Below, one piece after another: positions 44,380-64,000 of a stretch of 64,000 nucleotides of DNA. The notes beneath the pieces are model-generated. The model made no database searches. It had not been told where the DNA came from and saw only the letters and a program-made list of their open reading frames with translations. The position numbers were made by a program, and so were the translations under genes. This DNA is from a plasmid, in sequence record NZ_CP040393.1, one strand, 5' to 3'. Positions within the stretch are counted from its first letter, which is position 1. The number at the start of each line of letters is the position of its first letter.

Positions 44380-44433
44380 ATGCATTATATAAAACAACAC
44401 CCGGCCGCCATAAGAAAAGGCCGGCGTGAATGA
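44380..44433 (+). CDS. tap-like leader peptide (17 aa) translationally coupled to repA
   Basis: ATG CAT TAT ATA AAA ... CGT GAA TGA. Its stop (44431-33) lies just downstream of the repA GTG start (44426). The hairpin CCGGCC-N12-GGCCGG (44401-44424) covers the repA start region, as in IncFII repA control. Confidence 0.4.
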   Translation: MHYIKQHPAAIRKGRRE

Positions 44434-45334
44434 CAATATAAAATCGCGCGACGATCGTCGCCACCGTGGTACTCATTCCACGGCCTGCAAATGCCCTGCG
44501 CCGGAATACATTCGCCCGGCACATTACAAAGCGCTCAGCAAAGAGCACGGTCGCGCGCTGCGCAACCTGATTGTCCGGGATAAAACCACCGGCGAGTGGG
44601 TGATTCGCCGTCGCGTGTCTGCCGATCCTCTCTTCACTTTCCTCCGCCCATCTGCCGGCCGCAAACGGGCTTTTCGTTATCTGCGCCGGCAGCTGCTCGA
44701 TGCGCTGTTTATTCTCTTCATCAACAAGGTCGATCTGGCCACGGATATAGTGACCATCAACATCACCCGTCTGGCTGAGGAATTAAGCCCGAAAGATGCT
44801 GACGGTAACATCATCCCCGGACAGGCTGTCACGGTCACCCGCGTTTCTCGCCTGGTGACTGAACTGGCGCGCTTTGGCTTCATTTATGCGCCTGAGGCTG
44901 AATGGGATATGGTCAATAACTGCCGTTTTCCCAAACATGTCATCATCACCGAGGCCGGATGGCGGCTGACGGGAATTGATACGGATAAACTGCGGGCAGA
45001 ACAGGCTGAACGTCTGGCGGCCATCGAAGACGGGATCCTTGCGCCCGGAGAAACTCTCTCCCTGAAGGCAGCCCGCAGCCGCTGGTATGAACGCTGCCGG
45101 CACCAGACCATCCTGACGCGCAGAACCCGCGCCATTGAAGGCAGGCAGCGCAGAAAGCTGGCTGAACTGCCCTTCGATGAGCGCAAGCGCCAGATTTCCG
45201 AAGGACTGATGCGCAGCCTGAAAGGCGATGTGGGGCACATGACGTCCCGCCAGTTCGAGAAAATGGTCTGGGCACAGCTTTACCAGCTTGAACTGGTGAA
45301 CCTCGAGCCACCGGGAACACCTCCCCCTCACTAG
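44426..45334 (+). CDS. repA: IncFII(RepFIIA)-family replication initiator RepA1-like (GTG start)
   Basis: 302 aa. ...RKRAFRYLRRQLLDALFILFINKVDLATDIVTINITRLAEELSPKD...VTVTRVSRLVTELARFGFIYAPEAEWDMVNNCRFPKHVIITEAGWRLTGIDTDKLRAE... parallels R100 RepA1 (...RRRAIDALLQGLCFHYDPLANRVQCSITTLAIECGLATES...ITRATRALTFLSELGLITYQTEYDPLIGCYIPTDITFTSALFAALDVSEDAV). Arg/Lys-rich C-terminus. Confidence 0.65.
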   Translation: MNDNIKSRDDRRHRGTHSTACKCPAPEYIRPAHYKALSKEHGRALRNLIVRDKTTGEWVIRRRVSADPLFTFLRPSAGRKRAFRYLRRQLLDALFILFINKVDLATDIVTINITRLAEELSPKDADGNIIPGQAVTVTRVSRLVTELARFGFIYAPEAEWDMVNNCRFPKHVIITEAGWRLTGIDTDKLRAEQAERLAAIEDGILAPGETLSLKAARSRWYERCRHQTILTRRTRAIEGRQRRKLAELPFDERKRQISEGLMRSLKGDVGHMTSRQFEKMVWAQLYQLELVNLEPPGTPPPH

Positions 45335-45660: not shown

Positions 45661-46208
45661 CGCCGCTCAGAAATATTGCTTCCCCCCACCGCCAGCGGCG
45701 GGTCCCCTTCGCGCTGAAACCCAACGACAGAGTCGCCATTCAGCCCTGAAAAGCCGCGCCGCCCCGGGCCGGAGGCCCGGAACAGTGCCGCTTTTAAAGA
45801 GGATGATGTAACTAAGGTTTGCGTCGCGGTAACTCCAGTCGCTGAAAGACCTGCGTGACACGCTCGTAAGCGCCCTTCGGGACGCTAACGCGGAGATACG
45901 CCCCGTCTTCGGCAAAGCCTCGACGTGACCACTCCGGCCGCGCACATAACATTCTGCGTCGCTGATAACGGGTTATGGTCTGGCAGGGATGAGGGGTTAA
46001 TAGCCACAGGCTATCATGTTGCCGGCTTCGCCGGGTCACGGCGCCATTAACGCCCAGCGTTATATTCACCTTCATCCGGCGCCTTTATGCCGCTGTGCGG
46101 CATGCAGTGAGCCTGTTCGCACAGCTCACCGGCTCTAAAAAGGTCATTAGGTTGTCAATTTTCCGATCGGGAATATGATGTAAGGAGACAACCATCCGAG
46201 GAGAAAAA

Positions 46209-47012
46209 ATGGACACACTCCTGTTCCCCGGCCAGAACCAGAGCGTCTGGGCGGCCACAATGATTAACCTTGAGGCCCGCCAGCTCGTTAATACGGCCAA
46301 TACCGTGGCCGCCATGCATCTGCATGACGGACTTTCGAGAATTCAGTTCGTCGACGAAATCAGGTCAGTCATCATGAGCCAGTTTGAAGCGGCACGGCGC
46401 GCGAAAACGGATGATGAGTGTATGGCCTGCATAAAAGCGCTGCGGGCAGAAAACCACAGTCTGCTTGAACAATCCCGCGCACTGAAAACGGGCTATGCAA
46501 AGCTCTATGCCGAGGTAAAGATTGTCCGGGAAGATAATAAAATCATCGGCTACATTATTTCGGCCGTTGACGTGGTTGTTGCCGGCATGGCCATTTTTGG
46601 CGGCATTGTCATGATGTCGTCCATGAATCCACTGGGTGTGGTGGCCGGGGCTGTTATTGTCGTGAACGGTTTTAACACCATCTCACGTGAGGCTGCGCGT
46701 ACCTTCCTCGGGGACAGGCAGACAGAAGGGATGTTTGCGGATGGATCGATGGAGGTGGCCGAATTTCTTGGATTCAGCCGTCAGCAGGGGCTGGGTGCCT
46801 ACAAAGCAGTCACGCTTTTCAGTGAAGTATACGGCGCATATGGTCTGCGTCTTAAGCCTGAAGCCCAACGGCTCTGGTACTGGACCCGGCCCGATTTTTT
46901 CCGGAAAGTATCCGGCACTCCGCGCCCGGTCATGGCCTTAAAAATTGCAGGCTGGGGCATTAATGCAAAAGTGGCGCTCGATTTATTGTCTATCGATCCT
47001 GGCGGGAAATAG
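46209..47012 (+). CDS. Hypothetical protein (267 aa) with an N-terminal coiled coil and a central ~45-aa hydrophobic hairpin
   Basis: ...LEQSRALKTGYAKLYAEVKIVRED... then IIGYIISAVDVVVAGMAIFGGIVMMSSMNPLGVVAGAVIVVNGF... Its end overlaps a convergent small TM-protein gene. Confidence 0.6.
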   Translation: MDTLLFPGQNQSVWAATMINLEARQLVNTANTVAAMHLHDGLSRIQFVDEIRSVIMSQFEAARRAKTDDECMACIKALRAENHSLLEQSRALKTGYAKLYAEVKIVREDNKIIGYIISAVDVVVAGMAIFGGIVMMSSMNPLGVVAGAVIVVNGFNTISREAARTFLGDRQTEGMFADGSMEVAEFLGFSRQQGLGAYKAVTLFSEVYGAYGLRLKPEAQRLWYWTRPDFFRKVSGTPRPVMALKIAGWGINAKVALDLLSIDPGGK

Positions 47013-47313
47013 TTCTCTGTAAACGGCTGGCTTTTCTGCCCAGAGCGGGCGGAAACGTGGCCCAGGCAATGACCAGCACAATGACAGCGCTTACTCCGCC
47101 TGAAATGATATGCGTCCGGTTGCCACTGATGATTGCTGCTGACATAACCGGAAGAAGGGCGACGGTTACCCATACTGAAACCCGGAAACGACGGGAAAGT
47201 GCGGCAATCAGCTCATCCAACGTTCCTCCTCCCTGCAGCCTGCCGTGCAGATTTTCAACGTCACGTTCACTGAAACCGGCATTCCGTAAGTCTTTGTCGT
47301 TGATGCTCATCAT
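46990..47313 (-). CDS. Small two-TM membrane protein (107 aa), convergent with 46209..47012 and overlapping it
   Basis: MMSINDKDLRNAGFSERDVENLHGRLQGGGTLDELIAALSRRFRVSVWVTVALLPVMSAAIISGNRTHIISGGVSAVIVLVIAWATF... Confidence 0.55.
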   Translation of the reverse strand: MMSINDKDLRNAGFSERDVENLHGRLQGGGTLDELIAALSRRFRVSVWVTVALLPVMSAAIISGNRTHIISGGVSAVIVLVIAWATFPPALGRKASRLQRTISRQDR

Positions 47314-47338
47314 GTTCTCCCTTTTCCCGCCAAAGTAT

Positions 47339-47376
47339 ATACAGAGTTGACGCTCAACGGTACGGTTTCAGAACCG
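47339..47376. repeat. Degenerate Tn3-family IR-like sequence; direct copy of the one at 56530-56567
   Basis: GTTGACGCTCAACGGTACGGTTTCAG against GTTTGATGCTCAACGGAACGGTTTCAC. Core identity 20/22. Confidence 0.5.
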
Positions 47377-47406
47377 GGCTGTGCCCGGGAATATACTTCT
47401 GGCCAG

Positions 47407-48189
47407 TCAGTTCTGAAGGTACAGTCTCACCAGGCCGAAAACGATTAGATGAATGATGTAGGCCAGGTAAAAGAACGATGCCGGAATGAAGCGGTGTTCC
47501 GTTCCCGCTGCGGGTGAGGTCGCCATACTGACCGCCGCAGCCGGCAGCAGTACCGTGGGCAGAATGGCCAGTACAACGACGGTGACCGGTATTTCCTGAA
47601 TATGCTGACTGTTCAGGGCCATCAGCGCGATGAAAGCGGCGGCTCCGGCCGTGAGTCTGTACCGGAATGACGTGTGATGCAGGAAGATGGCCAGTGACAG
47701 CGCCAGTACAAGCCCCGGCACTCCGTAGCTTGCGATAGACAGTGGCCACGCCATCAGGGCAAGCAACAATACGCCGCCCGTCATGCCTGCCAGGCGGTAG
47801 CGGTGATGCCAGGCCAGCAGCTGCGTCGCGCCGGCGAAGACAAACAGAATGTTGAGGGCGTACCACGGGTCGTGTCCCCGGAATGCCAGACTGAATGCCG
47901 GCTGGGTGACGATCGCCCATAACCACATCCGGTTTGCCCTGATCTGCAGACGTTCCGGCCTGAGCATCACATTGCGTGCCCATATCAGCACGAACAGCGG
48001 AAACGCCATTCTCCCCAGCGCATAGAGTTCCGGTCGGGGCTGTGTCAGCAACAGGGTGTTGACGTGGTCCGCGAGCATGGCAACCAGCGCCGTCAGTTTT
48101 AGCCGGTCGGCGGCTCCCGGACTGATGGTCAGCCAGTGGTTTATTCTGGACATCAGTCCGTTCATCGTTACGCTGAGAAACTGTGTCAT
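47407..48189 (-). CDS. traX: TraX, F-pilin N-acetyltransferase (membrane). Inverted and displaced relative to traI.
   Basis: ...LKLTALVAMLADHVNTLLLTQP...GRMAFPLFVLIWARNV...WAIVTQPAFSLAF...NILFVFAGATQLLAWH matches F TraX (IKTVALVLMVLDHINLIFQLKQ...GRGAFPLFALVWGLNL...NILFAFAVAAQVLTWC). The overlapping 327-aa frame 47354..48337 is a shadow ORF. Confidence 0.85.
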   Translation of the reverse strand: MTQFLSVTMNGLMSRINHWLTISPGAADRLKLTALVAMLADHVNTLLLTQPRPELYALGRMAFPLFVLIWARNVMLRPERLQIRANRMWLWAIVTQPAFSLAFRGHDPWYALNILFVFAGATQLLAWHHRYRLAGMTGGVLLLALMAWPLSIASYGVPGLVLALSLAIFLHHTSFRYRLTAGAAAFIALMALNSQHIQEIPVTVVVLAILPTVLLPAAAVSMATSPAAGTEHRFIPASFFYLAYIIHLIVFGLVRLYLQN

Positions 48190-48576
48190 TTATGTCCTTT
48201 TCAGTCCGGCACGCTCGTAAAATATAATCCTGTACCCATTGCCAGAAAACCCGGCCGCTGTAAGGCGGCACACTGACACCGGCTTTCTGCAAGATCTTTC
48301 TCGCCACGGATTCTGTTTTATCCCGGATAATTAACATTGCAGAATTTTTATCTTTATTGGGGTCAGTTTGGATATCGGAAATTATTGTACGTTAAGGGGG
48401 GGCTTGGCCTTTTGAAACACCGATGATTTCAGGCCGCACTGCCAGGATTTTAAAGTGGGACTATGTCACACTGACATAGTAGTAAATAGCTAATGGATCA
48501 TTTTACTCCGTTGATGGCAACTATTTCGGATTCAGCTATGTTAAATTGTTCTGCTAGTTGAGCCTGTAACCAACTG

Positions 48577-49296
48577 TTATTTTGCCCCTGATGTCTCTGT
48601 AGATTTGATTTTTTCGATCGCAATAATATTGTCTGACATCGCTTCATTGAGCACTTCAACTGCCGTGCTGGCATCGCGATTCTTTATCGACATATAGACC
48701 TTGATATGGGCTTCCACACTTTCAAGGGTAATACCCAGCGTACGGTTAAGCTCTTCAAGATAGTAGTAATAGATGTCTTTAATCGAGCTCATCACGTTGT
48801 AGAACACGCTGTTGTGTGATGCCCTGACAATCGCCAGATGGAACTCGTAGTCCGCTTCCGAGTATTTTTTATAATCGCCTTTGTGGATCAACATGTTGTT
48901 CAGTGCTTCTTCGAGCTGGCGAATGTCATCATCGGTAGCATGTGTGACGGCGAGCTCCACGCATTTGAACTCCACAGTCTGACGAAAAATCATCATATCG
49001 TGAAACTCTTCGCGGCTGAGGTGCATGATTGGACGAGGATCGTTACTCAACATCTGTGGGATGAAGTTTTCGCTCACGTAGCTGCCGCTACCCTGACGTG
49101 TCACCACAATCCCCAGGTCACGAAAACGCTGCACCGCGCTACGAACGCTGACCCGGCTGACGTTAAATGAGGTGGTCAGCTCGGCTTCTGAGGGCAAACG
49201 GCTACCCGGAGCCCAACTGCCATCCAGCAATTTTCCGCTTATCTGATCATAAACTTCATTTACAACATTCTGTTTTTGAATGGATTTTATGCTCAA
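48577..49296 (-). CDS. GntR-family transcriptional regulator (FadR/FCD subfamily)
   Basis: N-terminal wHTH ...LPSEAELTTSFNVSRVSVRSAVQRFRDLGIVVTRQGSGSYV, then an all-helical FCD domain. Confidence 0.9.
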   Translation of the reverse strand: MSIKSIQKQNVVNEVYDQISGKLLDGSWAPGSRLPSEAELTTSFNVSRVSVRSAVQRFRDLGIVVTRQGSGSYVSENFIPQMLSNDPRPIMHLSREEFHDMMIFRQTVEFKCVELAVTHATDDDIRQLEEALNNMLIHKGDYKKYSEADYEFHLAIVRASHNSVFYNVMSSIKDIYYYYLEELNRTLGITLESVEAHIKVYMSIKNRDASTAVEVLNEAMSDNIIAIEKIKSTETSGAK

Positions 49297-49386
49297 GATG
49301 GGTATCCGTTAAGATGTCGCTGAAGTGATTTATTGTATAACAATTCACTTTTAAGAACAAAGCGCCCGGTCGGGCGCTTCTCACCG

Positions 49387-50430
49387 TTAATCGAAACGAA
49401 TTAGTACCTTAGCTGAGACATTTTTGTCTGTGGCGGTAATCAACGCGTCTTCAATTTGCTGGGGTGGGAACTCGGCGCTGATAAGCGGGCGAGGATCGAC
49501 GCGCCCATCTTCCAGCCAGCGTACCGCGGTGATGAACTCACCGATAAAGCGGAATGAGCCAACCCAGTTAAGCTCTTTAACCAGCATAGGCGACACCGGC
49601 CAGCTTACCGGGCTGGCCCCCATACCTACCTGGACGATAGTGCCGGCAGGGCGGGTGAAATCGACGGTGGATGCCACGGCAATCGGTGCGCCTGAGGCCT
49701 CAAACACGACGTCAAAGTAGCCTTTATGCTGCTGATAATGGGTAACCTGTTCTTCATCGCGCGGATCCATCACCACCGTGGCCCCCATCTGGCGTGCCAG
49801 TTCCAGACAGCGCGGGCTGAGATCGGACGCCACCAGTTCAGATGCCCCGGCACTGCGCGCCGCCGCGAGGATCAGGCAACCAATGGGGCCAGCACCAATC
49901 ACGAGAACGCGTTTGCCGGTCAACGGGCCCGCCTTTTTTACCGCATGAATGGCGACTGCCAGGGGTTCCGAAAAGGCCATCACGTTTGCTGGCACGCGAC
50001 TATCGTAAGGAATGCATTGCTCCGGTTTCACCACCACGTATTCAGAAAAGCCGCCATTCACGTGAGGATTGAACTGTGCGCTTCCCATAAAGCGCATGGA
50101 GCCGCACAGGTTTTGATGGCCGGAAAGGCACATCTCGCATTGATTACAGGGGCAGGAAGGGTTTACCGCCACAGTTTGTCCCACTTTTAGTTCGCTGCCT
50201 GCGGGCACTTTGTTAACCACGCCGACAAACTCATGGCCAATCACCATAGGATGTTTGAGGACAGACATCCCCGCGCGGCCATGCTGATAGTAGTGAATAT
50301 CAGAGCCACAGATACCGCCGCAGGCGACCTTCACAACGACATCATATTCACCGTGCTCGATTTCACGTGATTCAAAGCGTACGTCTTTTTCCGCATGGGC
50401 CAGACAAGCGTTACAGGTTATTTTTTCCAT
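49387..50430 (-). CDS. Zn-dependent medium-chain alcohol/polyol dehydrogenase (L-idonate 5-dehydrogenase / sorbitol dehydrogenase-like)
   Basis: MEKITCNACLAHAEKDVRFE... GICGSDIHYY, GHEFVGVV, structural-Zn Cys cluster CPCNQCEMC, Rossmann motif VLVIGAGPIG. Confidence 0.9.
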   Translation of the reverse strand: MEKITCNACLAHAEKDVRFESREIEHGEYDVVVKVACGGICGSDIHYYQHGRAGMSVLKHPMVIGHEFVGVVNKVPAGSELKVGQTVAVNPSCPCNQCEMCLSGHQNLCGSMRFMGSAQFNPHVNGGFSEYVVVKPEQCIPYDSRVPANVMAFSEPLAVAIHAVKKAGPLTGKRVLVIGAGPIGCLILAAARSAGASELVASDLSPRCLELARQMGATVVMDPRDEEQVTHYQQHKGYFDVVFEASGAPIAVASTVDFTRPAGTIVQVGMGASPVSWPVSPMLVKELNWVGSFRFIGEFITAVRWLEDGRVDPRPLISAEFPPQQIEDALITATDKNVSAKVLIRFD

Positions 50431-50446
50431 TTTGATGATGACCTCG

Positions 50447-51808
50447 TTATTTATTGGCAGTTGCCGGATTAATGGCATTCTTATCCACGGTGTTGGCATT
50501 CTTTTTTTCAGGCAAGATCACTTCAATTTTGCCCACGAGGAAGATGTAGGCTAATAAGCCCAGTCCGGCAACGCCTGCGATATACCACATGGCATACTGG
50601 AAGTTTTGCGTGCGCTGGAGAATAACCCCAATAACAATTGGACTAACGATCCCTGAAAGATTACCGCAAATATTTAAAAATCCGCCCATGGTGCCGAGGA
50701 AATTACGGGGGATCACATCGCTCCAGACCACCCAACCCAGGTTTGAAAAAGCGTTAGCAAAGAACGCAACAGACAAAATGACTATCGCAATTACCGGCTG
50801 GTTTTCAAAGAAGTTCACCATTCCAATAATCATAGTGACGCACAGGCCTGCCATCACCGGTAATTTTCTCGCCAGCGTGCGGGATTTGCCTTTTTTCAGA
50901 AGCATGTCGCTTAGCGTACCGCCACAGAGCACCCCAAGCATCGCCATAATATAGGGAAGCATGGCACCTATCCCAGCTTTGGAAATAGAGAGATGCAGCC
51001 CTTTTTCCAGGTAAACAATAAACCAGGTCAGGAAGAAATAGAGCGTAGACGAGCAGGCAAACTGGGTGATGAACAGACCCCAAATCGTTTTTTTACTGAG
51101 GAAGAATTTAATATCTTGCCAGCTGATTTTCTCGCTAACTGCAGACTGGTTGGCTGAGCCATAGCCACCACCCGCTTTGATGTAATCCAGCTCTGCCTGG
51201 TTCACAGCGGTGCTGTGCTGTGGATCGCGGTAATACATAAGCCAGTAGATGCCAAACAGAATCCCGACGCCACCGGACAGATAAAACGACATTTCCCAAC
51301 CGTAGTTAGCCACAATAAAAGCGAGGGCTGGGGTCAGCAGGGCGAGACCAAGATATTGCGCGCTGGAATAAATTGCGGTCGCACGCGCACGTTCATGATC
51401 CGGGAACCAGGTGGCGATTATTTTTGTGTTAGACGGAAAGGATGGCGCTTCGGCCACGCCAATTAATGCGCGGCAGGCCAGAAGCATTGCAAATGAAGCG
51501 GTTGCAGTCGCGAATAAATGGTGTGAGGCGAACCCCATCATAAAGGTAAAAATACTCCACAGAATAATCGCCCCACCGTAAAGAATACGTGACCCGATGC
51601 GATCAAGGACATAGCCGACAGGAATTTGACTGGCAGCGTAGGCCCAGGTAAACATGGAGAAAAGCAAACCCAGTTGTGTTGGCGTCAGACTGAAATCATT
51701 CTGGATATTCGAACCAGCAACGGCAAGATTGGCGCGATCCATATAATTAATTGCAGTCACAATAAACAGCAATGTGAGAATAAAGAGTCGTTGTCTTGAA
51801 GCCTTCAT
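50447..51808 (-). CDS. MFS transporter, anion:cation symporter family (D-galactonate/hexuronate/glucarate transporter-like)
   Basis: MKASRQRLFILTLLFIVTAINYMDRANLAVAG... 12 TM. Typical ACS-family N-terminus. Confidence 0.9.
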   Translation of the reverse strand: MKASRQRLFILTLLFIVTAINYMDRANLAVAGSNIQNDFSLTPTQLGLLFSMFTWAYAASQIPVGYVLDRIGSRILYGGAIILWSIFTFMMGFASHHLFATATASFAMLLACRALIGVAEAPSFPSNTKIIATWFPDHERARATAIYSSAQYLGLALLTPALAFIVANYGWEMSFYLSGGVGILFGIYWLMYYRDPQHSTAVNQAELDYIKAGGGYGSANQSAVSEKISWQDIKFFLSKKTIWGLFITQFACSSTLYFFLTWFIVYLEKGLHLSISKAGIGAMLPYIMAMLGVLCGGTLSDMLLKKGKSRTLARKLPVMAGLCVTMIIGMVNFFENQPVIAIVILSVAFFANAFSNLGWVVWSDVIPRNFLGTMGGFLNICGNLSGIVSPIVIGVILQRTQNFQYAMWYIAGVAGLGLLAYIFLVGKIEVILPEKKNANTVDKNAINPATANK

Positions 51809-51891
51809 AATAATACCTGTGTTATATCGGCATGCCGTCGGGTGAACACATACCGTCAATTTTAAAGGCGAGCAGGTAGAGTACGGACGGC

Positions 51892-52659
51892 TTATAACAC
51901 GGCGAGCCAGCCACCATCGACGTAGATAATTTGCCCGTTGATATAATCCGATGCTTTGGATGATAAGAAGACTGCGGTGCCGATGAGCTCATCCGGACGA
52001 CCCCAGCGCTGAGAGGGGTTGCTGCTTTTCACCCAGGCGTCGAACTGTTTGTCTTCGATAAGCGCGGTGTTCATATCCGTCAGAATGTAGCCCGGCCCAA
52101 TAGCGTTGGTCTGGATATTAAACTGTGCCCATTCTGCGGCCATCGAACAGGTGAGCATTTTGATGCCGCCTTTTGCCGCCGTGTACGGGGCAACCGTCGG
52201 GCGTGCGGCCTGGCTGGTGAGCGAGCCGATATTAATGATTTTACCGCCGCTGTTGCGGGCCATCATCCGTTTTGCCGCCGCGCGGGAGACCAGAAACGCG
52301 CTGGTCAGGTTGGTGTCGATCACCTTCTGCCAGTTTTCCAGCTCCAGCTCGACCATCGGTTTGCGGTACTGAATACCGGCATTATTGATCAGGATATCAA
52401 CATTGATCCCTTGTGCATCAAGTTTGCTAAAAGCCGCCTCAATTGCCTGTTCATCGGTGACGTCGAAAGCCACACCCTGTGCGTCGTAACCTTTGCTGAT
52501 CAGCGTATCCACTGATTCGGCCAGCAGCGTGTCGCGGATATCATTCAGAATGACCCGTGCGCCCGCAGCGGCAAGGCCCTCTGCGTAGGCAAAGCCCAGT
52601 CCGCGCGCAGAGCCCGTTACCAGTGCCGTTTTCCCCGTTAAATCAAATAAAGCGGTCAT
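51892..52659 (-). CDS. SDR-family oxidoreductase (gluconate 5-dehydrogenase / 2-deoxy-D-gluconate 3-dehydrogenase-like)
   Basis: TALVTGSARGLGFAYAEGLAAAGARV; NNAGI; catalytic S...YxxxK (YTAAKGG). Confidence 0.9.
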   Translation of the reverse strand: MTALFDLTGKTALVTGSARGLGFAYAEGLAAAGARVILNDIRDTLLAESVDTLISKGYDAQGVAFDVTDEQAIEAAFSKLDAQGINVDILINNAGIQYRKPMVELELENWQKVIDTNLTSAFLVSRAAAKRMMARNSGGKIINIGSLTSQAARPTVAPYTAAKGGIKMLTCSMAAEWAQFNIQTNAIGPGYILTDMNTALIEDKQFDAWVKSSNPSQRWGRPDELIGTAVFLSSKASDYINGQIIYVDGGWLAVL

Positions 52660-52992
52660 GTTGTTTCCTCATTTATTTAATATGTATGACGACTGTCATA
52701 TTTAAGATTGAATTTTCGCTCTGATAAAATCAACAACTCGCCCATTAATTTGCAATGAGGATCACAAACATTCCCGCTATGACGACCATAAAAATCCATT
52801 TAATGAATTGAATTATAGGTATATATTGAATTTTTATTGAACGTAATTTGATCGCTGTCACAGAATGGGTTTCGAAACGTTCCTCTGCAAAAGAAGCGTG
52901 ATATAACAACATCAACTTGTAGGACAACTTACAATTTGTACATCGTGTCATCCACAAAGATATGACATGCGGTAAATTCGCTGAGTTAAGGA

Positions 52993-54252
52993 GTGAAAGT
53001 GAGTAACCTGAAAATCACCAACGTGAAAACGATTCTGACAGCACCTGGCGGCATTGATTTGGCGGTCGTAAAGGTCGAGACCAATGAGCCGGGGCTGTAT
53101 GGTCTGGGATGTGCAACATTTACCCAGCGTATCTTCGCGGTAAAAAGCGCGATCGATGAGTACATGGCGCCTTTTCTGATTGGCAAAGATCCGACGCGTA
53201 TTGAGGATATCTGGCAATCAGGCGCGGTGAGCGGCTACTGGCGTAATGGCCCGATCATGAACAATGCGTTGTCCGGCGTAGACATGGCCCTGTGGGATAT
53301 CAAAGGTAAGCTGGCGGGTATGCCGGTTTATGACCTGCTGGGCGGCAAATGTCGTGATGGGATCCCACTGTACTGCCACACCGACGGCGGCGATGAAGTT
53401 GAAGTGGAAGATAACATTCGCGCCAGAATGGAAGAGGGCTACCAGTACGTTCGCTGCCAGATGGGCATGTACGGCGGCGCGGGGACCGATGATCTCAAAC
53501 TGATCGCCACGCACCTGGCGCGGGCAAAGAACATCCAGCCGAAGCGTTCGCCGCGCAGCAAAACGCCCGGTATCTACTTTGATCCGGACGCCTATGCCAA
53601 AAGCGTCCCGCGTCTGTTCGACCACCTGCGTAACAAGCTCGGCTTTGGCATCGAATTTATTCATGATGTGCATGAGCGTGTGACCCCGGTGACCGCCATT
53701 AACCTGGCCAAAACGCTCGAACAGTATCAGCTGTTTTATCTTGAAGACCCGGTGGCACCGGAAAACATTGACTGGCTGAAAATGCTGCGCCAGCAGTCTT
53801 CCACGCCGATATCCATGGGTGAGCTGTTTGTGAATGTGAATGAATGGAAGCCGCTCATCGACAACAAGCTCATAGACTACATTCGCTGCCACGTGAGCAC
53901 CATCGGAGGTATTACGCCGGCGAAGAAACTTGCTGTCTACAGCGAACTGAACGGTGTGCGCACCGCGTGGCACGGGCCGGGCGACATTTCCCCGGTCGGG
54001 GTCTGCGCTAACATGCATCTGGATTTGAGTTCACCGAACTTTGGCATTCAGGAATACACGCCAATGAACGACGCGTTGCGTGATGTCTTCCCGGGCTGTC
54101 CGGAGATTGACCACGGTTACGCCTATCTGAACGATAAGCCGGGCCTGGGTATTGACATTGATGAAGCCAAAGCGGCGAAATATCCGTGCGAGGGGGGGAT
54201 CCCGTCCTGGACAATGGCGCGCACTCCGGACGGTACGGCCTCAAGACCATAA
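52993..54252 (+). CDS. Enolase-superfamily sugar-acid dehydratase (D-mannonate / D-galactonate dehydratase family). Possible start at GTG 52999.
   Basis: MKVSNLKITNVKTILTAPGGIDLAVVKVETNEPGLYGLGCATFTQR...DMALWDIKGK... then metal-ligand acidic residues in a TIM barrel. 419 aa. Confidence 0.85.
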   Translation: MKVSNLKITNVKTILTAPGGIDLAVVKVETNEPGLYGLGCATFTQRIFAVKSAIDEYMAPFLIGKDPTRIEDIWQSGAVSGYWRNGPIMNNALSGVDMALWDIKGKLAGMPVYDLLGGKCRDGIPLYCHTDGGDEVEVEDNIRARMEEGYQYVRCQMGMYGGAGTDDLKLIATHLARAKNIQPKRSPRSKTPGIYFDPDAYAKSVPRLFDHLRNKLGFGIEFIHDVHERVTPVTAINLAKTLEQYQLFYLEDPVAPENIDWLKMLRQQSSTPISMGELFVNVNEWKPLIDNKLIDYIRCHVSTIGGITPAKKLAVYSELNGVRTAWHGPGDISPVGVCANMHLDLSSPNFGIQEYTPMNDALRDVFPGCPEIDHGYAYLNDKPGLGIDIDEAKAAKYPCEGGIPSWTMARTPDGTASRP

Positions 54253-54349
54253 GCAATGAAGGCCCGGTTTGCATCTGCCGGGTCTTATTCCCGACGTCCA
54301 GATGGACTCCGTTTGAGAAACGGAAATTATTGTATATTGAGGCTGATTT

Positions 54350-54991
54350 TTAATCAGTGGCCACTTCTTTGTAAAGAGCCTGAATGCGGCATATCTGGGA
54401 GGGACTGTACCCTGTCGCGTCTGCCGTTTCCCGGATACTCAGCTTCTTAATCTGGCGGTAGTACAGGACTTTCTGATGCCGTTCCTGATCGGCCTGTTTT
54501 CCCCGGTATTTTCCCAGCGTATGGGCCCGCTCAATCCCCTGTTTTTGCCGCTGACGGCGACTCAGCCAGTCTTTATGCGACATTGCGGCCATCAGGTCGA
54601 TAAGCATGTTATTGATGGCAGTTATTACTGCTCGGGTAACAGGATCTGCCCCCGAAGGATCCTTCTCTGACAAAGCCTGCCATGAGGTTGGCACATCAAG
54701 GCTGACAATCCGCAGTTCGTGTTGTTCTATCTGTTTTTTCAGCGTCATCCAGTCGCTGTTACTCAGACGGGTCAGGCGGTCTATCTGCTCGACCAGCAAA
54801 ATATCATTGCGGTGGCTGTCTATCAGTAAGCGTCCCAGTTCCGGGCGGTCAAGTTTTGTACCGCTGATGTTCTCCCGGTAGTAACTGGCTATTTTGTACC
54901 CCCGTTCCTGAATAAACTGCTCCAGCATCTCTTTTGCCCGATCGGCGAACTGATCTTCCGTCGATGCCCTTAAATAAGCTCTGATGAACAT
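54350..54991 (-). CDS. tnpR: Serine recombinase (Tn3-family resolvase TnpR)
   Basis: MFIRAYLRASTEDQ... (catalytic Ser motif), C-terminal HTH ...SIRETADATGYSPSQICRI. Divergent from tnpA. Confidence 0.85.
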   Translation of the reverse strand: MFIRAYLRASTEDQFADRAKEMLEQFIQERGYKIASYYRENISGTKLDRPELGRLLIDSHRNDILLVEQIDRLTRLSNSDWMTLKKQIEQHELRIVSLDVPTSWQALSEKDPSGADPVTRAVITAINNMLIDLMAAMSHKDWLSRRQRQKQGIERAHTLGKYRGKQADQERHQKVLYYRQIKKLSIRETADATGYSPSQICRIQALYKEVATD

Positions 54992-55158
54992 TTTTTCACC
55001 GCGTTATCGCATTTAGGTTATTGCATTTATTCTATCGCATATAGGTTATGTCATTCGTTGTGTGACGTCACGTTTTGGTTATGGCGTCAGGGTGTACCCT
55101 TATGCGATAAGCATTTTTGTTAAAAATACCCCACCGAATAATTTATGAGGGAAACTAT
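54992..55158. promoter_or_regulatory. Probable res site and divergent tnpR/tnpA promoters
   Basis: Intergenic position between the divergent tnpR and tnpA of a Tn3-family module. Confidence 0.5.
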
Positions 55159-56529
55159 ATGGCAAGGAGGCAGATTCTTTCTCTGCCGGAAAGAGAATCA
55201 TTACTGGCATTACCGGACGATGAGTTAACGCTGACACGAATGGCGTATTTTAGTGAGCATGATCTGGCGCTTATCAGTGCTCACCGTAAACCCGCCAGCC
55301 GTTTTGGTTTTGCCGTCCTTCTTTGCTATCTGAAAAATGTCGGCTTTGCACCGGATAAAAAAATCCCACCTTCTGATGCTCTGCTGAAGCATATCGCCAG
55401 CAGGCTAAAACTTATCGGGAATCTCTGGCCTGCTTACCTTTCCGGCAGGGAAACCACGCGACGCGAACATTTAACCGAACTGTACCGCTATCTTGGAGTA
55501 AAAGCGTTCACCGGCAAAATACAGCAGGACTGTATTACACACCTGCTGCCGATGGCGACGCGCACCGATAAAGGTATTCTCCTGGGCGAAGAACTGCTGG
55601 TCTGGCTCCGGAAGAACAACGTGATAATCCCCGCGATTGATGTCGTGGAGCGTACCTGTGCGGAGGCCATGGCTGGCGGCGGTAAAATCGTATTTCAGAC
55701 CCTGAATGCCCCGTTAACTCCGGCTCACAGGGATGCCCTGGATCGTCTACTTGATTCCTCAGATAATCAGTCTTCCAGGCTGACATGGCTTCTGCAACCG
55801 CCGGGTAAAATCAATGGTAAGAACGTGCTGCAACACCTTGATCGGCTCAGTAGCATTGAATCGCTGGCATTACCTGAAGGTATAGATCGTACCATTCACC
55901 AGAACCGGTTGCTGAAACTGGCGCGGGAAGGCCGAAAGATGAGTAGCCGGGATTTGACCCGATTTTCAGCAGCCCGGCGTCATGCGATCCTGGTGTGCGT
56001 GCTGGAAGAAGCCAGAGCCACACTGACAGATGAAGTGATTGAGCTGCATGAACGCATGCTGAACAGCCTGTTCAGCAAAGCCAAAAGAACACAGGCTGAG
56101 CGCCTTCAACAGACCGGCAAGCTGATCCAGTCAAAACTGAGGCAGTACATCGATGTCGGCCAGGCTCTGTCTGAAGCCCGTGATTCCGGTGGCGATCCAT
56201 GGCTCGCAATAGAAAACATACTGCCATGGCCTCAATTTGTCGCCAGTCTGGAGGAAACACGCCATCTCGCCAGGAAAAATAATTTTGATCCGCTGCATAT
56301 TATTACTGAGAAATACAGCACATTACGGAAATATGCCCCGCGCATGTTGTCCGCTTTACAGTTAGTCGCCACCCCGGCAGCGCAACCTCTGGCTGATGCG
56401 CTGGTTGTGATCAAGGATATGTACCGGAAGCAGTCACGTAAAGTTCCGGCGACAGCGCCGCTTGAGTTTGTCCCTGAAAGCTGGCGCAAAGTGGTGATTA
56501 CACCTGCGGGTATTGACCGGCAGTACTAG
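55159..56529 (+). pseudogene. tnpA: Tn3-family transposase TnpA, N-terminal 456 aa only (a full TnpA is about 1000 aa); truncated at 56529
   Basis: MARRQILSLPERESLLALPDDELTLTRMAYFSEHDLALISAHRKPASRFGFAVLLCYLKNVGF... This is the DUF4158 N-terminal domain of Tn3-family TnpA. The ORF stops immediately before a GGGG-initiated IR-like 38-mer. Confidence 0.85.
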
Positions 56530-56567
56530 GGGTTTGATGCTCAACGGAACGGTTTCACACGCTAAGA
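56530..56567 (+). repeat. Tn3-family 38-bp inverted-repeat variant (GGGGTTTGATGCTCAACGGAACGGTTTCACACGCTAAG), outer end at 56530. Pairs with the IR at 56662-56699 to bound a 170-bp TIME-like mini element.
   Basis: Compare Tn1000 GGGGTTTGAGGGCCAATGGAACGAAAACGTACGTTAAG and Tn21 ...ACGCTAAG. Confidence 0.6.
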
Positions 56568-56661
56568 GCTTTTTGTCCGATAAATCAGAATATTATGGAC
56601 AGTGAAAAATGCGCCTAAAGCGGCGTACTTTTAATCGATTTTTCAGACGACCTTTCTCACC

Positions 56662-56699
56662 TAACGTGAGTTTTCGTTCCACTGAGCGTCAGCCCCCGT
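56662..56699 (-). repeat. Tn3-family terminal inverted repeat (outer end at 56699)
   Basis: Plus strand CCTAACGTGAGTTTTCGTTCCACTGAGCGTCAGCCCCC. The Tn3 IR reverse complement is CTTAACGTGAGTTTTCGTTCCACTGAGCGTCAGACCCC (36/38). Confidence 0.85.
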
Positions 56700-56953
56700 T
56701 TCCACGGGCACGCCCACGGCTTAACACCCATTTCCAGCGCCTCGATGATGCTGTCTGTCACGGTCTGGTAGATATCGGGTCTGGCTTTGGAAAATTTCGT
56801 TTTTGAGGAGCCTGACTGCTCCAGCGGGGATACGCTGGTCGCCGGTGCGGATTTAGGAGCGGTTGTCCGGGTATGCAGGTTCATAGTCATGGTGGTTTCT
56901 CCGTCAGTGTGAATTTCGTCTTCGTATCGCCTGACGGTTCGCTTTTCCGACAT
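56700..56953 (-). pseudogene. ardC: ardC-like antirestriction / ssDNA-binding protein, N-terminal fragment truncated by the Tn3-family IR
   Basis: MSEKRTVRRYED...KARPDIYQTVTDSIIEALEMGVKPWACPWKRG matches the ArdC_N (DUF1738) motif LYQKVTD.IIAALE.G..PW. The ORF reads straight into the IR at 56699. Confidence 0.55.
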
Positions 56954-57251
56954 CGTTCCGGCCAGCAAGGGCGCTGAATGCGTGCCATTTACCCTTGTGG
57001 GACGGGTTGTGTTGGTAAACGATTACCGGAAGCTGATTCGAAAGAGAAAGGAGCACAGGAGAAAATGACGGCAGGCATTCCCGGACTTACCGCCCCTTAA
57101 GCAGCACTGGTGAAATTATTTCTGGTACAGATTAACGCCGCGCATCGGCAAAATGATGCCTCTAATTTCCATATATTGCTCAGCTTCCTACTGCTTGTTT
57201 GTTCTCTGTTAGAATAGGCGGATTACGTTATTCTGGTTTCGAGGTTTATTC

Positions 57252-57794
57252 GTGAACATTGATGAAGTAGCCAAGTGGCGTCCTTTTACGGATCCAGAGG
57301 GCAACATATGGGATTTGTCATTTCTTGACGCACATGAGGTTACTTATACTCATTGTTCTCCCGGTAAACCTGACATCGTGTACAAGTTTATTGTGTCTTA
57401 CTCGTTTCATTGTTTTTGTAAGGATTACCCGGAGCAGACTGAGGAAGAAAAATCGGCATTGATGTATAACGCAGGGAAAGACAAGAGACCATTTTGTAAG
57501 ACTCGATATGCTCTTGCTAGGGACAGGCTGCGAGCAATCATTGAAGAATTGGGTAACGCAAAGGTTATCCATGCTGGCTATGGTAGCTATGCTGTTGTAG
57601 AGATTACGGTAAATGAAGGTGAAAGTGAGTTCTACTTCGTGCCCTTTAAGGTTTATCGTGAGCGTAAAAAGCTGCGTCTTCATGTTACCAGTGCTTATCC
57701 TGTCAGCGAACGACCGTCAGGTAAACCGGTTAGCTTTTTCAAGATCGCCCACAATCTTTTACGTGGGAAACCATTACCTAAACCCCAGATGTAA
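57252..57794 (+). CDS. AT-rich orphan protein (180 aa), unknown function (GTG start)
   Basis: MNIDEVAKWRPFTDPEGNIWDLSFLDAHEVTYTHCSPGKPDIVYKFIVSYSFHCFCKDYPEQTEEEK... Low GC compared with the backbone. Confidence 0.45.
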   Translation: MNIDEVAKWRPFTDPEGNIWDLSFLDAHEVTYTHCSPGKPDIVYKFIVSYSFHCFCKDYPEQTEEEKSALMYNAGKDKRPFCKTRYALARDRLRAIIEELGNAKVIHAGYGSYAVVEITVNEGESEFYFVPFKVYRERKKLRLHVTSAYPVSERPSGKPVSFFKIAHNLLRGKPLPKPQM

Positions 57795-58325
57795 CAAAGC
57801 CCGCTTTGTAGCGGGCTTCGCCAGAATTTCTTCTGGTATTCAGAACACCTTTACCGGGCTTGGCCTCGACCAACATTGCTGCTGGTAGTGGGATGTCTGG
57901 TATCACCAGTCTGCTGCATCCTTAAAACAATTGTAGGTAGTGTGATGTAGATTTGCAACCACAATGTGTGGTTGCACCTATATACTAACTTTTCTCGATC
58001 TCCCCACAATCCCTTTCTGTATCGGGATTTCTGGAAATAGCCGACTAAAGAAACCTATAACCTAACTGCTATTCTGCGGTTCATGATGTTAGACGGATTT
58101 CCCCACCATATCGAAACCGGGTATGCCGAAAAAACGGGAAAATTTCACGGTAAAGGCTCCGATTTAACATATAACACCTTAACCGCACCGGCCCTGTGTA
58201 TTGCTGCATGCTTCACAGCTTTTACCTGACAACCTACCTAAAGTAAAAAATGGCATTAGGTTAGTGACTGGCTCTCCATTATGAGGGAGTCATACTCTGG
58301 GATTACAACACAAGGAACACAATAT

Positions 58326-58487
58326 ATGGCAAATTACTGGTCCGGCCAGAAATGTCCTGAAACAGGCACCTATGGTCAGTATCATGATACGAATAACGCT
58401 TACGCAGGCTCTGAACACGATCGTCACGTTAAAAAAGACGACAATTTCCCCCCCAGCCTGAATAACTATCACTTTAAAAAGAAATAA
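58326..58487 (+). CDS. Small hypothetical protein (53 aa)
   Basis: MANYWSGQKCPETGTYGQYHDTNNAYAGSEHDRHVKKDDNFPPSLNNYHFKKK, with an AAGGAACA RBS. Family not recognised. Confidence 0.3.
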   Translation: MANYWSGQKCPETGTYGQYHDTNNAYAGSEHDRHVKKDDNFPPSLNNYHFKKK

Positions 58488-58564
58488 CCAACGTCCTATC
58501 TATGGGGCGAAAGCCCCATTTTCAGTTCAGACAGTCCAACCTTCCATCTTGTATTTGGGGTTTG

Positions 58565-58606
58565 GGGTTTGGGGTTTGGGGTTTGGGGTTTGGGGTTTGG
58601 GGAGCA
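58565..58606. repeat. (TTTGGGG)6 perfect tandem heptamer; G-quadruplex-capable, ciliate-telomere-like simple repeat
   Basis: tatttggggtttggggtttggggtttggggtttggggtttggggag. Intergenic. Confidence 0.95.
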
Positions 58607-58773
58607 ACAGTGTGAAAAACCACGCTAAGGAACTAACAGTCTGAAATATCATGACTTATGAGACTGCGTTTTTGAGGCTAAAAAGTAGTTCCATATATCG
58701 TTTTTTGATTGTTTGAGACTGGACCGTATCAGAATCGATTTTTGATACCGCTTAACGTGGTTTTTTTACATCA

Positions 58774-59040
58774 TTGGCCGTCAACCCCCGATACCGGATG
58801 CCAGCTGAAAGCACTTTCCGGAAAGGCATATTTCAGCGCAAACGCAATCTGTTCTTTGGTATAACGGGTCTTTTTCATGGCGATGTACCTCCCGGCGAGC
58901 TTGAAGAAAGACCGGAGACTTTAGTTTAGACTGGCACTGTTTTCAGGGAGGAGATCAAACGAAGCTGTATTCTTCCCTGATCCTGTCATTCAGTTTATCC
59001 GGAGGGCAGTTAGCCGGTAAAAACCACGCCCTCCGGTTCA
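58774..59040 (-). mobile_element. IS3-family (IS407-group-like) insertion-sequence remnant: putative IRL (TGAACCGGAGGGC...) plus the first 16 codons of orfA, then truncated
   Basis: Minus-strand ORF from 58878: MKKTRYTKEQIAFALK matches the IS3-family OrfA N-terminus (MKKTRYTEEQIAFALKQAE...). It then diverges and stops after 35 codons. TGAACC on the minus strand at 59040-59035 sits about 160 nt upstream, directly abutting the MCP stop. Confidence 0.4.
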
Positions 59041-59052
59041 CAATAAAGCAGC

Positions 59053-61005
59053 TTAGCGCGCGGCAAAGAACGCCAGCGCCGCCTCCAGATTCCTGGCCTG
59101 TTCTTCGAGTGACATGGCCGCTGCGGAAATCTGTTGCACCAGTGAGGCATTTTGCTGGGTGGCGCTGTCCATCTGATTCACCGCCTCGCTCACCTGACTC
59201 ACGCCTTTCGTCTGCTCATCCAGTGCCTGCACAATCTCGGCAATGACCAGATGCACGCTGGATACCGATTCGATGATTTGCTTCATCATCGCCCCGGTCT
59301 CATTCACCAGCGCCACACCTTTACTGACGCGCCCGGACGACTCCGCAATCAGTGCCGAAATCTCCCTGGCCGCGCTGGCGCTGCGCTGTGCAAGGTTACG
59401 TACTTCACCCGCCACCACCGCAAAACCTCTGCCCTGTTCGCCAGCCCGGGCGGCTTCGACCGCCGCGTTCAGCGCCAGAATATTGGTCTGGAAAGCAATG
59501 CTGTCGATGATACTGTTGATATCGCCAATCTTGATGGCGCTCTCATCAATCTTGCCGATGATATCCACCACCTCATTCACCAGCGCTTCGCCCTGCCCGG
59601 CAATCTGCGCTGCGTTCTGTGTCAGCGATGTCGCCTTGTGCGCGTTCCCGGCGTTGTTTTTTACGGTCACGGAAATCTGTTCCATGCTCGCTGCGGTCTG
59701 CACAATCGCCGCTGCCTGCTCCTCGGTTCGCGAGGCCAGATCGAGGTTTCCGGCCGCAATTTCGCTGCTGCCGGAGCGCACGGAACTACTGGCATCACTG
59801 ATGCTACCGACGATGCGCCGGAGTTGCTCCTGCATGGTATGCAGGGCATAGAAAATGCTGCTGTTATCGCCCGCGCGTACCGGGATCTCATTACTCAAAT
59901 CCCCCTGCGCCACGGACAGCGCTATCTCTGACGCCTCTGTCGGCTCCCCCCCCACCGGACGTGCAACCTTACGGGTGAACACCAGCGCCACCACCACACT
60001 GACAATAATAATGCTCAGGATCATCAGGATGATGGCGTTACGCAGGTAGTGCCAGGCTTCGGCCATCACCACACTCACCGGGGTCACAATCGCCAGCTTC
60101 CACGGCGTCCGACTGTTACCAATCTCGATGGTACGCCAGGTAATAAACGCCGGCTCTTTTAATATCTTATCGTCTGCGCGAATCACCGCTTTCCCGCCGA
60201 TGGTCCCCGTCCAGGGTTTACCCGCTGCGGCCTTATCCGGACTGGAAACCACTTTATTGTCTGCCGAGAGCAATACCGCGTAACCCGTTCCTTCCCACGG
60301 CTTTATCGCGCCAGTCATTTTTTGCAGCGTTTCCAGCGAGAAATCCGATGTAACCGAGCCCTGAAACTTACCGTCGCGAATAATCGGTGCCGCGATGGAG
60401 GTCAGCATCACATCCACGCCGTTATAGGGGTAGATATACGGCTCGAGAATGACCTCTGTCTGGCGCTGACGCGGCAGCAGGTAGTAATCGCCGCTACCCG
60501 GTGTTTCATAATCCACCAGGTTATGCAGCGCCGGATGGCCGCTGTTATCGCGATCAACATAGCGTGCATAACGGCCAGCCGGATCCTGATCTGCTTTTCC
60601 CGCGAATTCCGCGTCCTTGCCATCGAATGCATTTGCCTCAAAAGCCAGTGACATCGACAGAAAATCAGGATGATGATGCAGATAATCACTCAGCAACTGG
60701 TCCAGTCCGCGCCGGTCAGCGAGCCCCGCCTGGTGCAACGCCCAGGCGCTGTTACCCAAATCACGGGCGGCGTTCAGCGCCGAGTCCAGCTGTTGCTGAA
60801 TACGTAATGATTCAGTGAGCGCTATTTGCTGCAGATGTTTCCTGGCGACGGCGTCCTGCTGGCCCATTGATTGCCAGAGCAGCAGACCGATGGTGACCAG
60901 GAACCCGGCAGTGATGGTGACAAAAATAGATACCAGCATTAGCGTTCTGGCTTTTACTTTTTTCCCGGCAGATTTCATTGCGCCCATATTCTTCTCCGAC
61001 ATCAC
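59053..61005 (-). CDS. Methyl-accepting chemotaxis protein with a periplasmic dCache-type sensor
   Basis: 650 aa. TM1, Cache-like periplasmic domain, TM2, HAMP, MCP signalling domain (...[24 protein letters not shown]... with a conserved methylation/hairpin region). Confidence 0.9.
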
Positions 61006-63495: not shown

Positions 63496-63679
63496 TCACC
63501 ATATCAGTCCGTTATACGTCCGATGTTAACTGGGTTATGAGCGGTAAATCCAGAATTACGCTCCAGAACAGAAAACGATTATCCAGGACAGATATAAGCA
63601 AGGTGATACCCTGAATAATATCATCAGAATGTTCGACAAAAATCATTATGCTATTATGCCATGGTCAGCCACACCCGAT

Positions 63680-63895
63680 TTACTGTAGCGACAGACATTC
63701 GGATTGATTTCTGTGATCTTCTATCACCCTGGCAACGTAATTCATCTGAACGTCGGCTGTGTGCCAAATACGGATATTATCCAGATTTCTGCCGAGCCCC
63801 ACATGCCGGTTTATGCCGGTTAGGATTTTCCTCATTTTCCGGAAATCATGAACTAAGACCTCGAAAATTGCCAGGAAATGGCCCCTGTTTAACAT
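63680..63895 (-). CDS. Hypothetical protein (71 aa), possibly a gene fragment
   Basis: ORF only; no recognisable motif. Confidence 0.2.
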   Translation of the reverse strand: MLNRGHFLAIFEVLVHDFRKMRKILTGINRHVGLGRNLDNIRIWHTADVQMNYVARVIEDHRNQSECLSLQ

Positions 63896-63913
63896 ATAAC
63901 CCCTTCAGTGCCT

Positions 63914-64000
63914 TAACGACACCGCCAGTAATAATCCATGACGATAATTACCAGGATGATACCGGCGACCCCTGCAACCCCTGCGATGAATTCACTCATG
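63914..64000 (-). CDS. Very small hydrophobic protein (28 aa) starting at the window edge
   Basis: MSEFIAGVAGVAGIILVIIVMDYYWRCR. A single TM. Speculative. Confidence 0.2.

Follow-up and report, generated by a model that had tools for sequence, protein, structure and literature searches.

IS101 was reportedly the subject of work by Ishizaki and Ohtsubo in 1985. [quoted passage not shown] (2014, PMC4133298) and by Gomi and Yano (2026, PMC13367494), and is the one TIME whose res site is experimentally functional; gamma-delta functions both mobilise and resolve IS101 (PMC13367494). TIMEs have been reported inside Tn3-family transposase genes and, after rearrangement, without direct repeats (PMC4133298, PMC13367494). 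For another TIME, MITESen1, no similarity to well-characterised res sites was reported (Gomi and Yano, 2026, PMC13367494). The pChiA/pChiOTDR genes of avian-pathogenic Escherichia coli plasmid pChi7122-2 have been described as a ‘sugar pathway’ or ‘L-idonic-acid-like pathway’ (Mellata et al., 2012, PMC3251573), in a paper whose main text uses the term Tn3 0 times. The locus considered here lies in a stretch of 64,000 nt of plasmid record NZ_CP040393.1 (hereafter the window, over the whole of which positions are counted). In it, a Tn3-family unit transposon with homologues of pChiA and pChiOTDR (the cargo transposon) breaks off within its transposase gene, tnpA, directly against an IS101-like TIME, on whose other side lies a fragment of ardC; the junction probably arose by a rearrangement mediated by the element itself. 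The region is an ordinary mobile-element mosaic of known kinds, a truncated catabolic transposon plus a TIME. Its anatomy, the boundaries and family membership of both elements, an empty insertion site and the lack of target duplications can be read directly from the alignments.

The miniature element and its junctions with tnpA and ardC

The features that meet at the junction are the following, with inverted repeat abbreviated as IR:

55159–56529, plus strand: truncated tnpA, codons 1–456 of 995, matching profile NF033527 at positions 2–438 of 954
56529–56697, plus strand: IS101-like TIME, 169 bp, non-coding
56529–56566: left IR of the TIME, GGGGTTTGATGCTCAACGGAACGGTTTCACACGCTAAG, of the Tn3-family type
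56574–56601: res site I of the TIME
about 56621–56649: fused remnant of res sites II and III of the TIME, with a 38-bp deletion near 56630
56660–56697: right IR of the TIME, inverted, Tn3-type
56698–56890, minus strand: ardC remnant, N-terminal 64 of about 320 codons (Pfam ArdcN)

The original prediction, made from the letters of the window, had placed a well-formed Tn3-family IR at 56530 and an inverted Tn3-type IR at 56662–56699, enclosing a 170-bp element without coding capacity. All of this is borne out with small corrections: the left IR starts at 56529, the right one occupies 56660–56697, and the element is 169 bp long. The right IR matches the IR of Tn3 at 36 of 38 positions (2 differences) and the left one at 28 (10 mismatches), and both fit the pattern GGGG-N26-ACGYTAAG with at most one mismatch; IR patterns of this sort are matched 0 to 0.5 times in shuffled sequence. 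Further copies, the search for which had been recommended, are abundant: the family is present in at least 446 PLSDB records at a coverage of at least 80%, including plasmids of E. coli, Serratia and Klebsiella, in varied contexts. Full-length copies measure 206–207 bp, and their interior aligns with the Tn3 res sites I, II and III. Of the four full-length copies examined, two have perfect 5-bp duplications: the E. coli pE94-5 copy lies between repeats of GTATC, and one in a Serratia marcescens plasmid between repeats of GCTTA. The window copy is without 38 bp between two TTAATCG repeats, so that site I is kept, whereas little of site II and, of site III, no more than the right half is left. 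The 169-bp object is a genuine Tn3-derived miniature element, a deleted copy of a family of about 207 bp. The MITE table of PMC13367494 (Table S2), the sole table checked, holds no name for this family, and a search of pSC101 recovered no TIME-family IR because IS101 has different IRs.

The family appears to be mobile and the window copy rearranged, because other copies are flanked by 5-bp repeats and the window copy by none. Tn3 and gamma-delta resolvases need accessory res sites; because these are lost from the window copy, its res presumably cannot support resolution. With two Tn3-subgroup IRs around a Tn3-type res, the TIME is non-autonomous and would need a transposase of the Tn3, Tn2 or gamma-delta type in trans. 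Its cognate enzymes are not found in the window: no Tn3-type tnpA was detected there, and with their Tn3 counterparts the resident TnpR and TnpA share 27% and 23% identity, respectively. Because the resident proteins diverge this far and the resident res motifs are unrelated, the mobilising transposase was probably a different, Tn3-subgroup enzyme, not encoded in the window.

The two junctions of the TIME carry the argument. On the left, tnpA of pChi7122-2 runs from CAGTACTA into TGAATTTTG, where the window runs from CAGTACTA into GGGGTTTGA; in a longer view, intact tnpA continues from GACCGGCAGTACTA into TGAATTTTGTG and the window from GACCGGCAGTACTA into GGGGTTTGATG. The premature end of tnpA at 456 aa had been recognised in the original prediction and holds against a full length of 995; the G with which the IR opens at 56529 serves as the last letter of its TAG stop codon. 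On the right, homology to ardC begins where the right IR has its tip (56697/56698), which confirms the proposed truncation of an ardC-like gene: 64 N-terminal codons remain, and the DNA of the ardC fragment (~420 bp) is 84–88% identical to intact ardC in plasmids of about 40 kb. Both break points are IR tips exactly. The 5-bp flanks, TACTA on the tnpA side and GTTTC on the ardC side, are no duplication, so that the search for a target duplication around the element, which had been recommended, finds none at 56529/56697.

Breaks at IR tips combined with unlike flanks are the signature of strand transfer by a transposase without a simple resolved insertion; here the 5-bp flanks differ and an ardC fragment lies on the other side. 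Transposition in the Tn3 family is replicative. The footprint of Tn3-family transposition that had been suspected in this region is supported, the TIME marks the truncation point of both tnpA and ardC, and other Tn3-subgroup elements at the same TACTA position elsewhere mark the tnpA side as the target. The account that we regard as probable is therefore a rearrangement mediated by the element, which brought together the truncated cargo transposon and the IS101-like TIME via an unresolved cointegrate or an adjacent deletion. A transposase acting in trans would have joined the left end of the TIME to TACTA within the tnpA of the cargo transposon. This could have happened in an intermolecular cointegrate, that is, a replicon fusion that was never resolved and in which ardC would be the flank on the donor side, or by intramolecular replicative transposition, which would have removed the whole interval from tnpA codon 456 to ardC codon 64. 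Between these routes, the balance seems to tip toward the cointegrate, given a defective res and, on the right of the TIME, a mosaic of foreign DNA. The cointegrate route predicts a reciprocal junction of the form ardC 3' GTTTC-TIME-TACTATGAATTTTG tnpA 3'-right IR-TTATT-TGACAGTGCGG.

Several points weigh against an element-mediated rearrangement or one of its routes. Synthetic reciprocal-junction queries recovered no PLSDB record in which the TIME is simply inserted, whether into tnpA or into ardC; scans of genome contigs for ardC/TIME and tnpA/TIME junctions gave no match and one chance match; an exact-match search with the 456-aa TnpA fragment brought up no recorded protein; and the search for the reciprocal junction itself was confined to the 64-kb window. 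Moreover, the 38-bp deletion in res could postdate the rearrangement. Target immunity of the Tn3 type should disfavour the intramolecular route, and there is no comparable argument on the cointegrate route. The IS101-like TIME is abundant and is left unmarked by annotation pipelines, and its window copy seems to lie at the origin of a deletion or a replicon fusion.

The alternative that survives best is that two TIMEs inserted independently, one in tnpA at TACTA and one in ardC at GTTTC, in direct orientation, and that a RecA-dependent or resolvase-mediated deletion between the copies followed. This would yield the identical final sequence, in which the flanks are not duplicated and each break falls on an IR tip. 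However, two insertions of one element in one replicon are disfavoured by the established target immunity of Tn3-type elements, neither simple insertion is found in any PLSDB plasmid, a repeat of 169–207 bp is a poor substrate for homologous recombination, and the present TIME copy is without the accessory res sites that a resolvase needs. Even though it is documented that one TIME can be present twice in a replicon (PMC13367494), this sequence of events is improbable.

Less probable still, an assembly artefact could have joined the 5' part of tnpA falsely to the 5' part of ardC through the repeat, in a genome with at least two TIME copies, in which case neither truncation would be real. Mismatched flanks across a 169-bp repeat are indeed what a collapsed repeat looks like, and the region is rich in repeats, with a second TIME and several fragments nearby. 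On the other hand, the 64 kb contain no second copy of the 169-bp TIME, no tnpA 3' half and no ardC 3' part; the ardC fragment gives way after ~420 bp to unrelated mosaic DNA, so that ardC is a remnant in any case; and similar one-sided junctions occur at the same tnpA site in finished plasmids. A simple insertion of the TIME in tnpA, followed by an unrelated deletion, due to an IS or to illegitimate recombination, whose end fell on its right IR by coincidence, would suit a neighbourhood composed of short fragments, but the deletion end matches the IR tip to the nucleotide, as expected of a transposase and not of a random deletion, and no IS end is found at the junction; we give this explanation very little weight.

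A recurrent junction within tnpA

The position at which an element-mediated rearrangement would have struck tnpA, between ACCGGCAGTACTA and TGAATTTTG (window 56524–56529, TACTA), adjoins four different IRs of the Tn3 subgroup, each by its tip, as the reciprocal-junction queries brought to light. One belongs to the window's own IS101-like TIME; the others are Tn2's bla-end IR, in IncX1 plasmids, a different IR (GGGGTTTGAGGGCCATTGATG...) belonging to a cargo transposon in pMO17_54, and a gamma-delta/IS101-like IR in the Salmonella salamae plasmid CP053317.1, there without a matching duplication. The element in CP053317.1 is gamma-delta/IS101-like and 3.9 kb long, its two terminal IRs (GGGGTCTGAAGCCCAACCGTACG...) are identical, and its flanks are TAGTA and GTATA; on one side it borders the 3' half of a tnpA of this lineage, and the 5' half is not present within 16 kb. 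It would appear to be a further rearrangement left unresolved, like that of the window. Both halves of tnpA around one element were seen in none of the four cases. Together, the TACTA junctions represent at least three independent events, the one in the window counted, at one nucleotide of a 3-kb gene. In the same tnpA lineage, Tn3 is found at another site in pFAM21845_2.

An unusual resemblance of the TACTA region to IRs was considered and rejected, since in Smith-Waterman comparisons with five IRs it ranks mid-range among tnpA windows. A count of broken versus intact tnpA in PLSDB with a 150-nt probe was swamped by distant Tn3-family matches. It is a tentative proposal, with a little under an even chance of being correct, that Tn3-subgroup elements have, at TACTA in the tnpA lineage of the MITESen1 type, a hot spot precise to the nucleotide, at which one transposon clade repeatedly disables another, often with unresolved rearrangements. 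If confirmed, the junction would offer a ready substrate for studying target choice in the Tn3 subgroup. It is the sole feature of the region that might repay further work.

The cargo transposon and the plasmid backbone

To the left of the TIME, the cargo transposon and its insertion point comprise, in addition to the truncated tnpA:

48354–48358: presumed 5-bp target TTATT; the empty site in pKS2022 reads TCTTTATT followed by TGACAG
48359–48396, plus strand: true left 38-bp IR, GGGGTCAGTTTGGATATCGGAAATTATTGTACGTTAAG, the sole exact match in the window
48577–49296, minus strand: GntR/FadR-family regulator, pChiR homologue
49387–50499, minus strand: L-idonate 5-dehydrogenase, pChiD homologue (572 bits on NF007375, cut-off 469)
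50447–51859, minus strand: MFS transporter of the hexonate/galactonate type, pChiT homologue (TIGR00893, E = 4e-106)
51892–52659, minus strand: SDR oxidoreductase like gluconate 5-dehydrogenase, pChiO homologue
52993–54252, plus strand: enolase-superfamily sugar-acid dehydratase, ManD / D-galactonate dehydratase family, pChiA homologue
54350–54991, minus strand: tnpR serine resolvase (Pfam Resolvase, E = 2e-21), the protein whose identity to Tn3 TnpR is 27%
54992–55158: tnpR–tnpA intergenic region, presumed res site, 167 bp, with repeated TTATCGCAT(T/A)TAGGTTAT motifs

The extent of this unit follows from an intact relative. Positions 48359–56528 form one collinear, 94%-identical match to E. 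coli pChi7122-2 and to four other E. coli plasmids. The copy in pChi7122-2 is intact, with five passenger genes, tnpR, a 995-aa TnpA, two 38-bp IRs and a TTCCA duplication; its IRs differ from the left IR of the window by one to two bases (the right IR by 1 nt). The left IR at 48359, which the original prediction did not list, was recovered by generic as well as specific IR searches, and of the IR form GGGG...ACGYTAAG the left end is perfect there and the right end was not found in the window. The tnpA fragment is 96% identical to residues 1–456 of the pChi7122-2 TnpA and scores 367 bits on NF033527 against a cut-off of 500, with the catalytic C-terminal half missing. The resolution module is apparently present, as a serine resolvase gene and an adjacent putative res, with repeated motifs in the intergenic region between the divergent genes. 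Within the 64-kb window, neither the 3' half of tnpA, nor the right IR of the transposon, nor the 3' part of ardC, nor the backbone beyond the empty site is found.

Judged by these alignments, the mobile unit is a Tn3-family unit transposon at 48359–56528 with a corrected left boundary, of which the window retains a remnant and not a functional member: a diverged, truncated allele in a plasmid of the Kosakonia type. A Tn3-family unit transposon with IRs of the MITESen1 type and divergent tnpR and tnpA genes inserted just past traX, after TTATT, carrying as passengers pChiA and pChiOTDR for a pathway resembling that of L-idonate or hexonate. Because its right IR and the catalytic half of its transposase are lost, it is now immobile, with one IR left and its sugar-acid genes fixed in the plasmid. 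The pChiA/pChiOTDR operon rides as a passenger on a Tn3-family transposon, which has reached plant-associated Kosakonia-type plasmids.

The DNA to the left of the transposon is organised as follows:

37214–42994, plus strand: traI, part of the backbone
43010–43792: DsbA-like gene, between traI and repA
44426–45334: repA, IncFII-type, between the dsbA-like gene and the DUF4225 module
46209–47012, plus strand: DUF4225 gene
46990–47313, minus strand: 107-aa open reading frame (ORF), membrane-like, overlapping the DUF4225 gene
47347–47370, plus strand: IR-like core, no transposon end, 24 nt, TTGACGCTCAACGGTACGGTTTCA
47407–48189, minus strand: traX, pilin acetylase family (NCBIfam TraX_Ftype, E = 4e-37, under the curated cut-off)

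That traX lies on the minus strand and apart from traI had been pointed out correctly, and the genes in between include the dsbA-like gene and repA. The closest relatives of the backbone are Kosakonia plasmids, with 87–92% identity over the tra–rep region. In pENT01, the order is traI-dsbA-repA-DUF4225 module-traX (minus) with no transposon at that place, and the part from repA through the DUF4225 module to traX (minus) is present, and transposon-free there, in pKS2022 and in Cronobacter sakazakii pCrono589-2. Homology to pENT01 and pKS2022 spans traX and ends at 48357/48358, directly against the left IR of the cargo transposon, and the uninterrupted sequence in both plasmids, TCTTTAT(T/C) followed by TGACAG, places the empty site between 48358 and 48359. 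The comparison with insert-free relatives, which had been recommended, delivered this empty site and the backbone order without the transposon. Because the transposon-free plasmids pENT01, pKS2022 and pCrono589-2 share the gene order, traX is plasmid backbone outside the transposon, contrary to its original assignment to the mobile cargo. F-like plasmids of a Kosakonia/Cronobacter lineage normally have the arrangement traI-dsbA-repA-DUF4225-traX (minus), and the broken F order traI-traX-finO is a trait of this lineage and not the product of a Tn3-type inversion. Displacement of traX by an IR- or resolvase-mediated inversion, as had been proposed, is contradicted by the same order in relatives without the transposon, and an inversion by the resident resolvase is also implausible, as its own res and TnpR are unrelated to the Tn3-type res of the TIME.

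The left bracket of the originally proposed segment was a degenerate 38-mer at 47339–47376, sharing a core with the IR at 56529. A core does exist, but it is 24 nt long, the register of the 38-mer is off by 3 nt, and the IR termini are absent, as neither the GGGG tip nor the inner end ACGYTAAG is present. Within the core, there is 1 mismatch to the left-IR consensus of the TIME family and there are 2 to the window's own copy, the number stated originally, in the same orientation as the IR at 56529. The core lies upstream of the 107-aa ORF, within a variable 1.4-kb DUF4225 module (46036–47421), a diverged allele that has been swapped in and is inverted relative to pENT01 and pKS2022; homology to these plasmids is lost at the edges of the cassette, 46035 and 47422. 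The module is ~75% identical and in equal orientation in the Cronobacter plasmids pCrono589-2 and pA84-2, and a weaker version of the motif stands at the equivalent place in the Cronobacter plasmids, upstream of the 107-aa ORF. A promoter and terminator scan of 47200–47450 gave a single weak promoter-like site, which does not overlap the core. The similarity is too good for chance, and the core may be a very old IR relic; as an end of the present cargo segment it does not qualify and belongs instead to the DUF4225 module.

The explanation that survives least, a 9-kb composite unit at 47339–56699 that is bounded by IR-like sequences and carries traX as cargo displaced by an IR- or resolvase-mediated inversion, has the non-random, equally oriented core at 47347–47370 in its favour, but is hardly credible given that a complete 38-bp IR at 48359 is the transposon end at which homology to the intact transposon begins, that traX and its flanks are backbone ending exactly at 48358 in transposon-free plasmids of unchanged gene order, that the motif at 47339 has neither GGGG nor TAAG and is part of a module conserved in Cronobacter plasmids, that the TIME's res has no relationship to the resolvase and res of the cargo transposon, and that no target duplication pairs 47339 with 56697. 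The map is corrected accordingly: traX belongs to the plasmid, and the mobile unit, now dead, is 48359–56528.

Mosaic DNA to the right and comparison with known systems

The DNA to the right of the TIME (56698–64000) is a patchwork, which starts with the 420-bp ardC fragment and continues with:

57172–58080: small-plasmid-like stretch with a ‘stationary phase growth adaptation protein’, 86–88% identity to plasmids of 2.4–5.8 kb
58592–58788, plus strand: second, unrelated Tn3-type miniature element, 197 bp, found by a generic IR scan and missed by the original prediction
59053–61005: Cache-domain methyl-accepting chemotaxis protein, about 75% identity to Cronobacter plasmids
62365–63495: GGDEF-domain protein

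No Kosakonia plasmid is among the 20 best-covering PLSDB matches for this stretch. The left IR tip of the second miniature element is expanded to (TTTGGGG)x7, in perfect repeats, at 58554–58602. Its IRs are like that of the pMO17_54 transposon, and it contains a palindromic sequence resembling a res site I. Plasmids of environmental Enterobacterales (Enterobacter soli, Rahnella, Erwinia, Serratia, Pantoea and Yersinia) contain at least 12 relatives of full length; ATATG is duplicated around the one in Rahnella, whereas the window copy is without a duplication. A remnant of roughly 30 codons on the minus strand (58789–58881), beginning MKKTRYTKEQIAFALKYA..., adjoins the right IR of this element. 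It may correspond to the N-terminus of an IS3-family OrfA.

Among known systems, the pChi7122-2 region is the closest to the cargo transposon: five passengers in like order at 94% DNA identity, with tnpR and tnpA alongside. The element of pChi7122-2 is complete, however, with both IRs, the 995-aa TnpA and TTCCA, whereas the window copy is truncated. The IRs of MITESen1 (a 256-bp TIME in ISfinder; sequence from PMC13367494, Table S2) match the left IR of the cargo transposon at 36/38 and 34/38 positions, and its 17-mer ATAACCTAAATGCGATA is identical to a repeat in the tnpR–tnpA intergenic region of the window (55005–55049). Because of these IR matches and the identical 17-nt repeat in the res region, MITESen1 probably derives from the lineage of the cargo transposon, retaining part of its res site, and this lineage is likely to be both its parent and its mobiliser. 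MITESen1 is a miniature derivative and is itself absent from the window, which instead holds a disabled relative of the autonomous type.

The family of the window's TIME compares most closely with IS101, which its full-length copies resemble in their near-equal length, the lack of an ORF, the layout of IR, res sites I, II and III and IR, the Tn3-subgroup IRs and the 5-bp duplications seen at copies outside the window; family and IS101 can be aligned from end to end. Full-length family copies are 70–75% identical to IS101 and the window copy is 57% identical, differing from it also by the 38-bp deletion that fuses sites II and III. The IRs of the family differ from those of IS101, the left one by a distinctive GGTTTCACACG inner part, and the right one lies 2–5 mismatches from the Tn3 IR. 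With Tn3 and Tn2, the transposons of blaTEM, the likeness is in the right IR and the res alignment, but the TIME is without tnpA, tnpR and bla. As a short, non-autonomous, plasmid-borne element with Tn3-family IRs and many copies, it resembles the TIME class as a whole, and unlike those TIMEs that occur in resistance-gene composites, it caps a truncated catabolic transposon.

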